Below, in pieces: positions 7,913 through 10,321 of a stretch of DNA of 30,413 bases; position 1 is the stretch's first letter; each line of letters starts with the position of its first letter. Both the position numbers and the translations under genes were made by a program. Source of the stretch: Planctomycetota bacterium (GTDB lineage: Bacteria; Planctomycetota; SZUA-567; H5-PLA8). The DNA lies in contig BTVV01000073.1 of assembly GCA_045863855.1 (NCBI GenBank), positions 1-30,413 of the forward strand. The letters are read 5' to 3'. The notes beneath the pieces are model-generated. The model did no database searches and was not told the origin of the DNA. It saw only the letters and a program-made list of their open reading frames with translations.

Positions 7913-10321
7913 TTACTTGATCGCGGTAAGGTTCGTCGGGGTGTGGGTGGCCAGGATGGGCGCGCCGAGGGCCGAGGGGTGCGGTTGCGGTAGCGGGACG
8001 GGCTCGTCGAGGTTTACCTTGGTCAGGCGCATCGAGTTGACGACCACCAGCGCGCTGCTGGCGACCATGGCCAGCGCGGCCAGTCCGATCTGAAGCTGGT
8101 TGAACATTGCCAGCGGGATCATGACCGCGTTGAAAGCGAAGGCCCAGACGATGTTCCAGCGGATCAGGCGCAGCGCCTGTTGGCACAGGCGCAGGACGCG
8201 GGCGACGCCGCGCGGATCGCCGCTGACCAGGACGATCGAACCGCTCTCGACCGAAAGATCCGTGCCGGTGCCCAGCGCGATGCCCACGTCGCCGGCGGCC
8301 ATCGCGGGCGCGTCGTTGATGCCGTCGCCCACCATCGCCACGCGGCGGCCCTGGTCGCGCAGGGTCCAGGTGAAGTCGATCTTGTCCTCGCTGGACATGT
8401 GCCCGTGGATTTCGTGGTTCTGCAGTCCGCAGCGGCGCCCGGCGGTTTCACTGGCGGCCTTGTTATCGCCGCTGATCAGGTGGACGTTCAGGTGCATCCC
8501 GCGCAACTCGCTCACTGCGTCGCCGGCGTGCTCCTTGACCGCGTCGCTCATGGCGATGGCGCCCAGCACGCGGCCTTTTTCCTGTGCCAGGAAGACCATC
8601 GTCGCGCCGTCGGTTTCCAGTTCGTCCACGCGCCGTGCCAGGGCCTCTTCGAGCTTGAAGCCGCGCTCTTCCAGGAGCGGGCGCGAACCCAAGACAAAGG
8701 TGCGGCCGCCGATGCGTCCCTGCAGGCCGCGCCCAGGCAGCGCGCGGTATTCGTCCACTTTGCGCAGGATCAGGGTGCTCTTCTTCGCTTCGTTCACGAC
8801 GCCCTTGGCCAGCGCGTGTTCGCTGCACGCTTCCAGCGAGCCGGCCAAGTTGAGAAGTTCGTCGCGTTCGACGCCGTCGGCCAGTAGAACCTCGCGGGCG
8901 TGGAAGCTGCCGTCGGTCAGGATGCCGGTCTTGTCGAAGACGACGTCGCGCACGCGCCCGGCGGCCTCGATGGCCTGCCCGCCCTTGATCAGCAGTCCGC
9001 GCCGCGCGCCCAATCCGGTGGCCACCAGCACCACCGTCGGCGTCGCGAGGCCCAGTGCGCAGGGGCAGGCGACCACCAGCACCGCGATGGCCGGATAGAG
9101 CGCGCGGGTCACCGCCGGTTCGATGGCCAGGAACTGCCACCAACTGTCCACCGGAAGCGCCGCCAGCCATTCGGGGAAGAGACGTTGAACCGCGTAGGGG
9201 CCGAAGAACCAGCCCACGAACGTGACCAGCGAAAGCAGCAGGACGACGGGAACCAGCACGCCGCTGACGCGGTCGGCCATCTGCTGCACCGGGGCCTTAT
9301 GTTCCTGGGCGTCTGCGACGAGCCGCGAGATTTGGGCCAGCGTCGTCCCTTCGCCGGTGCCCGTCGCGCGGATGCGCAGCAAGCCGGTCCCGTTGACGCT
9401 CGCCACCAGCACCTTGTCGCCCTTTACCTTGGGCACCGGGCGGCCTTCTCCGGTGAGCAAGGCTTCGTTGACTTCGCTCTCGCCTTCCATCACGACGCCA
9501 TCGACGGGAATCTTCTCGCCCTTGCGGACGATCACGATCTCGCCCAGGGCCACAACGCCGGCCGGGATGACCTGCTCGCGTCCGTCGCGCAGGACGCGTG
9601 CTTCGCGCGGCATCATTTCGCGCAAGCTGCCCCACAGGCGGGAAGTGGACTCGCGCGCGCGGCTTTCGAGGTACTTGCCCAACGAGACGACGGTGAGGAT
9701 CGCAGCGGCGGCGCTGAAGAGCGGTGGCCAGCGGCTCAGGTCCGGGTCGTCACTCACGCGCCCGACGAAAGCCAGCAGGCCCTGCAAGTACGCCGCGCTG
9801 GAACCCACCACCACCAAGCTGTCCATGTTGAACGACCAGCGCCGCAGCGCGCGGAAGAAGCCGCGGTAGTAATCCCATCCCACCGTGATCTGCACCGGCG
9901 TGGCCAGGAGGAAAAGCCACATCACCTTCGTGATGCTGTCCCCGGCCATGAACTGATCCATGAAAACCAGTATGCCCGTCAGGACCGCGCCGGCCACGAA
10001 GCGGCTGCGCCGGCTGGCGATCACTTCGATACTGTCGCCGAAGGTCTGCTGTTCGCGGGGATCGTTTCCGGTGCTGGCCGTCGTGGCTTCGTAACCGACC
10101 TCGGCCACGGCTTCGATCAGCTTACTGGCGCTCATGCGCGGTTCGTGCCGCACCGTCGCCATGCGCGTGAGCAAGTTCACGCCGGCGCGCTTCACGCCCT
10201 CGACCTGCTGCAAAGCGCGCTCGATGCGCGTCACGCAAGCAGCCGAATGCATACCGCCGATGACCAATACAGAGGTACGCTCTTTGGTTTGAAGTTCGGA
10301 CAAGCGCAAACTCCGGGACAT
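7913..10321 (-). CDS. Heavy-metal P1B-type ATPase, CopA-like, with atypical motifs
   Basis: N-terminal HMA fold, [44 protein letters not shown], MxxSS. Start may be ATG 10321 or TTG 10345. Confidence 0.92.

Follow-up and report, generated by a model that had tools for sequence, protein, structure and literature searches.

A CopA-derived protein of one Planctomycetota class with repeatedly lost pump residues and a likely role other than pumping

The window analyzed here, i.e., the whole 30,413-nt stretch of contig BTVV01000073.1 from a Planctomycetota bacterium (G000, the source genome), carries on its minus strand a CopA-like frame at positions 7913..10321, referred to below as the focal gene and, for its product, the focal protein. 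The frame is open over 802 codons, bearing out the preliminary description, which had called it full length. Read from the ATG at 10321, the product would be 802 aa long. A start at the TTG at 10303, giving 796 aa, is probably the likelier one since the ATG is an ATT in G002 (a second genome of the genus, with a focal gene 99% identical), a GGAG lies just 5' of the TTG, and the database entry of the protein is 796 aa long with its first residue at residue 7 of the 802-aa frame.

The focal gene stands alone, divergent from glcD and convergent on a thioredoxin gene. Its plausible promoter, already pointed out in the preliminary description, is a sigma70-like site at 10382..10411 on the minus strand with 10/12 consensus matches and an 18-nt spacer; two such sites were found in the 3-kb region against 0.3 expected, and similar -35 and -10 boxes can be seen by eye 5' of several orthologues. 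Between the convergent thioredoxin gene and the focal gene, a GC-rich hairpin between T runs at 7821..7840 (plus-strand site 7827-7839) is likely a bidirectional terminator. Contigs from RNA runs cover the focal gene as four short identical pieces (X15) and, from a related strain, over 7966-10356 (X18), which is a hint of expression and only that, since DNA carry-over is possible in such contigs.

Further along the window, an oxidase operon of COX2, COX1, two COX3-family genes and COX4 (assigned with Pfam) occupies 667-5159 on the plus strand. Directly 3' of it, a small ORF (5168-5455, plus strand) begins with a signal-like stretch and has a single membrane segment and a CxxC; it matches nothing in Pfam or NCBIfam and is a candidate oxidase-assembly factor. 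The divergent glcD belongs to a glcD/glcE-like FAD oxidase pair (10552-13342, plus strand), and this arrangement is repeated in G001, G002 and G007. The plus strand at 15644-19636 encodes two Ser/Thr kinases, of which one carries zinc ribbons, and after them a PP2C-like phosphatase.

Across 19 relative loci plus the window, 4 sister-clade loci and 28 flanking proteins searched against Pfam, no neighbour was conserved beyond close kin. Local neighbours include glcD in 4 genomes, HupE/UreJ in the two genomes of one genus and LysE in two sister-clade genomes. A count of 7-8-mers in the 250 nt upstream of 20 orthologues returned only GC-rich words and the promoter boxes, with no shared operator. 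None of 13 longer protein matches came from the focal clade, which is weak evidence that its members are not fused to other domains.

By descent and fold, the focal protein is a P1B-type protein. Pfam assigns it an HMA domain followed by E1-E2 and hydrolase domains; placed by alignment, the MA and MB helices are present and the CPx motif lies in M4. It scores above the cut-offs of both TIGR01525 (535 against 346) and TIGR01511 (455 against 397), and its closest solved structures are those of ATP7B, HMA4, AfCopA and LpCopA (phmmer E-values of 1e-113 to 1e-132). Its matches in the ESM Atlas are generic P1B clusters. The preliminary description had listed departures from CopA motifs along the frame and raised base-call errors as something to check. 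All of the motifs were found at the positions given there, and the substitutions are real, with base-call and assembly errors excluded: G002 has every one of them, a contig from a DNA run of a separate study (X3) shows zero differences to the focal locus over 8500-11000, and contigs from another such run (X4) show zero differences over 7965-8332, 8310-9649, 9696-10152 and 10200-10652.

For the site-by-site comparison, 55 clade rows (P0001, P0003-P0051 and five genome loci, a few of them near-duplicates) were set against 217 controls with gaps dropped per site. The controls are 70 database proteins and the 147 of 160 genome or metagenome loci with a frame of at least 600 aa; these locus scans gave only ordinary CopA-like genes and were therefore taken into the control set. 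All of the motifs that follow are on the minus strand. The HMA domain (10076..10276; PF00403, 47 bits) has SxxC in place of CxxC, in the motif GMHSAAC at 10235-10255; the first Cys is present in 16/51 clade members against 198/209 controls, and the second in 47/51 clade members. The same domain holds a clade signature of L51, R53, T56, R58 and H59 (10145..10180), 98-100% conserved among 49 members, of which the R58-H59 pair is also present in the sister clade described below. At 9713..9721, LFS replaces YFE, whose Glu aligns with LpCopA E189, which we take to be the exit-pathway Glu; only 2/53 clade members have an acidic residue there, against 207/217 controls. In the A domain, the TGE loop (9446..9454, within NEALLTGEG) is intact, and its Glu is kept in 46/55 clade members against all 217 controls. 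A clade-typical insert of ~25 residues between M3 and M4 (9116..9196), fast-evolving except for an FL pair, is missing from the source genome's own CopA.

In the membrane region, the focal protein has an intact CPC in M4 (9059..9067). C419 is present in 55/55 clade rows, while C421 is free to vary: it is Cys in 33/55 rows against 216/217 controls, and across the clade the residue is C, V, F, A, Y, P or I. In M5, FN replaces YN (8129..8134), with the Tyr in none of 53 clade members (212/214 controls) and the Asn in 42/53 (214/214 controls). The MxxSS of M6 (MVASS, 8054..8068) is intact, its Met being kept in 43/52 clade members and 213/213 controls. By alignment, the entry residues are M166 in M1, E219 in M2 and D350 in M3, and the M1 Met occurs in 49% of the clade. 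C419, P420, E219, D350 and N762 stay conserved in the clade, and Q180/G181 and an extracytoplasmic insert are specific to it.

In the cytoplasmic domains, the phosphorylation motif reads DKTGI (8921..8935). The focal protein has the phosphorylated residue, Asp463, which is free in the clade: it is kept in 43/54 members against 217/217 controls, the other 11/54 having G, E, K or C, as none of the controls does. Thr465 is present in 39/54 clade members against 216/217 controls, and Thr467, the second Thr of DKTGT and Ile in the focal protein, in 29/54 against 217/217. In the N domain, SEHA replaces SEHP (8813..8824); the Pro is found in 2/53 clade members against 211/217 controls, and the His, kept in the focal protein, in 45/53 against 217/217. 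The GDGIND hinge (8312..8329) is intact, and its Asn is kept in 38/53 clade members against 216/217 controls. TGE, K647 and an SGD of the TGD type, which 21/217 controls also have, are likewise kept in the focal protein, and K647, D666, D670, G530 and G532 are kept in 96-100% of the clade. What is said here on the function of the YFE Glu, P-domain Lys and hinge Asp is general background on these ATPases.

The oddities listed in the preliminary description are thus all present, and three of them carry little weight because each is found in ordinary CopAs, namely NE for DE (Asn replaces the Asp of the DES motif in 21/217 controls), HA, and FN (6/145 otherwise canonical top-scoring representatives). 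The source genome's ordinary CopA also has HA, so a failure of the HP motif is a weak test. As for the features of P1B-1 Cu(I) pumps, the focal protein has CPC and MxxSS and lacks YN and CxxC; as for those of active P-type ATPases, it has its own phospho-Asp but not the DKTGT signature, and the Asp is not invariant among its orthologues.

The preliminary description had allowed that close orthologues might have canonical motifs. None of the 49 full-length members has the complete CopA set, against 209/213 controls, and a core set of 11 catalytic and 5 membrane residues (Thr467 and Tyr730 ignored) is whole in 13/49, the focal protein included. On a tree of the 49 full-length members and 6 outgroups, built with the trait columns removed, parsimony counts 7 changes at D463, 10 at C421, 7 at N731, 7 at M752 and 8 at N669, i.e., catalytic and ligand residues have been lost repeatedly. 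The site rate of D463 is 0.81 in the clade (the 56th percentile of clade sites) against 0.04 in controls, and that of C421 is 1.06 against 0.04.

The genes nevertheless remain under purifying selection. Pairwise Nei-Gojobori dN/dS, in which high GC biases dS, is 0.03-0.24 in eight family pairs of the focal clade and 0.33 in a ninth, more distant pair; for ordinary CopA it is 0.15-0.21 in five pairs, a sixth being saturated. The focal gene differs from that of G002 by 108 synonymous and 10 non-synonymous changes (dN/dS 0.03), and the ordinary CopAs of this genome pair are under looser selection, at 0.15-0.17. Even the loci L013, L014 and L015, with DQSG, no HP His and GDGASD, give 0.09-0.22, and none of 15 whole-length family genome matches has an internal stop. 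The idea that the substitutions co-occur under purifying selection, put forward in the preliminary description, stands as to selection but not as to co-occurrence, since there is no fixed joint signature and the set varies by branch.

Within the protein, constraint has shifted from M4-M6 to the HMA domain, MA-M1 and the A domain. Rates in the clade relative to 60 controls are 1.43 for M4, 2.2 for M5 and 2.45 for M6, as opposed to 0.75 for the HMA domain, 0.69 for MA, 0.67 for MB, 0.77 for M1 and 0.82 for the A domain. Of 48 positions conserved in the clade and not in controls, 35 fall within the first 345 residues, which comprise the HMA domain, MA-M2 and the A domain. Residues invariant in the clade alone are G22, L51, R53, T56, R58, H59, R107, T115, Q180, G181, W230, R248, G255, A258 and R440.

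The focal sequences group in a single, fully supported clade. In a protein search, 49 relatives matched at 45-82% identity before the values fell to ~40% with ordinary CopAs; the named relatives are Planctomycetota metagenome-assembled genomes (MAGs). In a profile search of 1.84 billion representatives, the top matches were all from the focal clade, with a sharp drop thereafter and one extra clade fragment (P0255). The gene is single-copy in 17/17 genomes of its family, split over contig ends in two. At the level of the order, one of the two genomes of family f3 (G018) has an orthologue (L021 and L247, on contigs C427 and C869) with the clade HMA signature, without CPC and DKTG, and with a frameshift 3' of the A domain that may be an assembly error or mark a pseudogene. 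In the rest of the class, 45 genomes were surveyed outside the family by inspecting the motifs of the best matches and reading part of the weaker ones; by score and best-match motifs, no orthologue was found in the genomes of f4 (32), f7 (5), f2 (1) and f6 (1), many of which are incomplete. Across 401 genomes sampled from the phylum, with two candidates scored per genome, the 7 strong matches outside the family were all canonical.

A related degenerate CopA-derived protein is present in all four f5 genomes (G024, G026, G021 and G028; L215-L218; P0271-P0284). Among its 16 sequences, CPW occurs in 14, the second Cys and Lys464 in none, and the Asp in 9; phosphorylation motifs read DRTG, LRSG or GRSG, and an intact DKTG is found nowhere. 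These sequences group with the focal clade against 35 ordinary CopAs (SH-aLRT 99) in a mixture-model tree made by quick search with 30 rows left out, and on this tree the f5 clade is probably the sister of the focal clade. The grouping could reflect long-branch attraction, against which stand derived residues common to both clades (R58-H59, A434, R440 and F730). Two f5 pairs have dN/dS of 0.44 and 0.52, higher than family pairs.

The source genome holds a separate canonical CopA (L262:4499-6886, contig C9) with CxxC, YFE, CPC, DKTGT, YN and MxxSS, as well as NESALTGE, HA instead of HP and the short M5-M6 loop that the focal protein has too. An HMA domain lies at each end of this CopA, and a metal regulator gene was not seen beside it; its G001 counterpart (L263) is split by a frameshift. 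No second P1B gene was found in G008, G024 or G026 (77-87% complete), and in G008 (83% complete) a near-canonical clade member with CAAC and DKTGT is the sole P1B found. We considered CopA as an obligate partner of the focal protein and rejected it, since these three genomes lack a detected additional P1B and the ordinary CopAs of the family belong to several lineages. In a separate observation, P0400, P0401 and P0402 are canonical CopAs fused to an ETR1 N-terminal domain, PAS and a histidine kinase (confirmed with Pfam), two of them with a receiver and one with an Hpt domain. They are bacterial-looking, and this pump-plus-copper-receptor fusion presumably recalls the plant RAN1-ETR1 pair.

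Orthologues without the Asp, second Cys, Asn or Met are still under selection, from which we infer that the protein is not kept for pumping; the focal gene is likely kept for some other, undescribed job. A fold that is under selection throughout, with its phosphorylation site and copper ligands free, is likely a pseudo-pump, and the option of a pseudo-enzyme or sensor in the preliminary description is supported at the family level by the repeated losses. Judged from sequence comparison, the focal gene is probably an old single-copy CopA paralogue, its product a pseudo-pump retained for a role as membrane-anchored scaffold or regulator and not for ATP-driven copper export. For the family as a whole we lean, by a little less, towards a free-standing bacterial pseudo P-type ATPase that arose early in one Planctomycetota class, when a copy of CopA became a membrane receptor or scaffold locked in conformation; it would now be part of the family core, while many branches go on shedding pump residues independently.

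In such a pseudo-pump, the broken CxxC pair would leave the HMA domain copper-free and docked on the A domain, and the docked domain would hold the protein in one conformation as a locked pump. The conserved surface of the HMA domain, the A domain and MA-M2 would bind a putative partner, which is probably not CopA itself, and many members, including the focal protein, may bind Mg-ATP through K647, D666, D670, G530 and G532 without turnover. A copper-free, CxxC-mutant N-terminal domain blocks the activating change in Thermotoga maritima CopA (PMC4179477), phosphorylation of the DKTGT Asp defines the pumping cycle (PMC10654040; PMC3817396), and that Asp is called invariant in P-type ATPases (PMC10654040). 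For AfCopA, Ala substitutions in M4-M6 are described as abolishing activity, and MA-M2 and M3-M6 as two bundles (PMC9433437).

Several observations weigh against a pseudo-pump. The focal protein is among the 13/49 members that keep all scored catalytic and membrane residues, so that slow pumping is possible, and the near-canonical member that is the sole P1B found in G008 could mean pumping. The 84 control-invariant sites are still slow in the clade (mean rate 0.40 against a clade average of 1), and in most pairs no region is slower than the P1 segment. Per-domain dN is noisy, with the HMA domain not slow in close pairs, and FN, HA and NE are shared with ordinary CopAs. Lastly, a partner, a fusion and a conserved neighbour were all looked for at the loci and among longer proteins, and none was found.

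The main rival, to which we would give perhaps one chance in four, is a protein with two jobs, in which motif-complete members such as the focal protein would be slow Cu(I) pumps using a Met-CPC-Met sulfur path, while selection everywhere keeps a second, non-catalytic job and sub-lineages lose pumping at random. The focal protein does keep M166, E219, D350, C419, C421, M752, D463, K464, TGE, K647 and GDGIND, as do the other core-complete members, and FN also occurs in ordinary-looking CopAs. A single high-affinity site formed by CPC and the M6 Met is also the model in PMC9433437. However, the nearest branches lack Asp463 (P0004/P0006, P0014, P0016) or the second Cys, Thr467 is Ile in the focal protein although invariant in the 217 controls, and substitution of the YN of AfCopA (by Ala, not Phe) is described as impairing Cu binding and activity (PMC9433437).

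It is improbable that the membrane site has been rebuilt and that the protein now acts as an uncoupled carrier or pumps another substrate. The conservation of C419, P420, E219, D350 and N762, together with the clade-specific Q180/G181 and extracytoplasmic insert, would suit such a role, but no new ligand is fixed in M4-M6, residue 421 varies, M5 and M6 are the most relaxed helices, and any pump would still need the Asp. The different substrate suggested in the preliminary description is accordingly unlikely, since M4-M6 show no conserved set of alternative ligands.

Still more doubtful is a CcoI- or FixI-like slow pump supplying copper to the nearby oxidase, as the preliminary description had also proposed. 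The cox operon does lie near the focal gene, the placement is the same in G002, and COX1 is present in 14/17 family genomes. Nevertheless, four unrelated genes separate the focal gene from the operon, the two are on opposite strands, the focal gene has a promoter of its own, cox adjoins it in only 2/20 loci examined, and in G001, of the same genus, the COX1 match on that contig is ~1.18 Mb off. Furthermore, COX1 was not found in G008, G018, G024, G026 and G028 (MAGs 77-87% complete), which carry the protein or its sister. The CcoI role is left unsupported by a cox neighbourhood local to two genomes and by these carriers without detected COX1. CopA2, FixI and CcoI resemble the focal gene in accompanying a canonical CopA as an additional CopA-like gene, with a cox operon near in the source genome, but CopA2/FixI-type pumps are described as active and co-transcribed with COX subunits (PMC3817396). 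The focal gene is neither consistently encoded with oxidase genes nor consistently co-occurring with them. A decaying duplicate or assembly artefact, for which the frameshifted G018 orthologue and the raised dN/dS of the two sister-clade pairs could speak, is the least probable of all, and the preliminary suggestion of decay is rejected given the dN/dS of the eight family pairs, the 108 synonymous against 10 non-synonymous differences to G002, the lack of internal stops in 15 whole-length family matches and the identical contigs from two other studies.

Compared with known systems, AfCopA (3j09, 7r0g), LpCopA (3rfu), HMA4 (8q73) and ATP7B (7xuk) have the same domain order as the focal protein, HMA - MA/MB/M1/M2 - A - M3/M4 - P/N - M5/M6. 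P1B-1 Cu(I)-ATPases share CPC, TGE, GDGIND and MxxSS with it; it differs from them in having DKTGI, FN, HA and SxxC and in lacking the YFE Glu, and its orthologues lose the Asp, CPC, YN and M ligands. By descent, the focal protein is a P1B-1 ATPase, but as DKTGT, YN and CxxC are all missing from it, it should not be annotated as a copper exporter. Database entries for these proteins carry the label 'Cu+-exporting ATPase', which likely leads to an overcount of copper resistance in these genomes. No published account of the focal clade, or of a bacterial P1B pseudo-ATPase, was found in the literature searched, mostly non-subscription papers. With the fold kept and each catalytic and ligand residue lost several times, the family is a natural mutant series for studying the P1B mechanism, and roles proposed for P-type ATPases beyond pumping (scaffold or transceptor) become testable in a small bacterial protein. 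Of published systems, the one most like it is the degenerate flippase module of alveolate P4-ATPase-guanylate cyclases (Plasmodium GC-beta, Cryptosporidium, ciliates), which likewise keeps the P-type fold; some lineages there have lost the DKTGT Asp and the A-domain Glu while others need them, and a supporting role has been proposed (PMC13466520). Those proteins are eukaryotic, of the P4 type and fused to their output enzyme, whereas the focal protein is bacterial, of the P1B type and free-standing.
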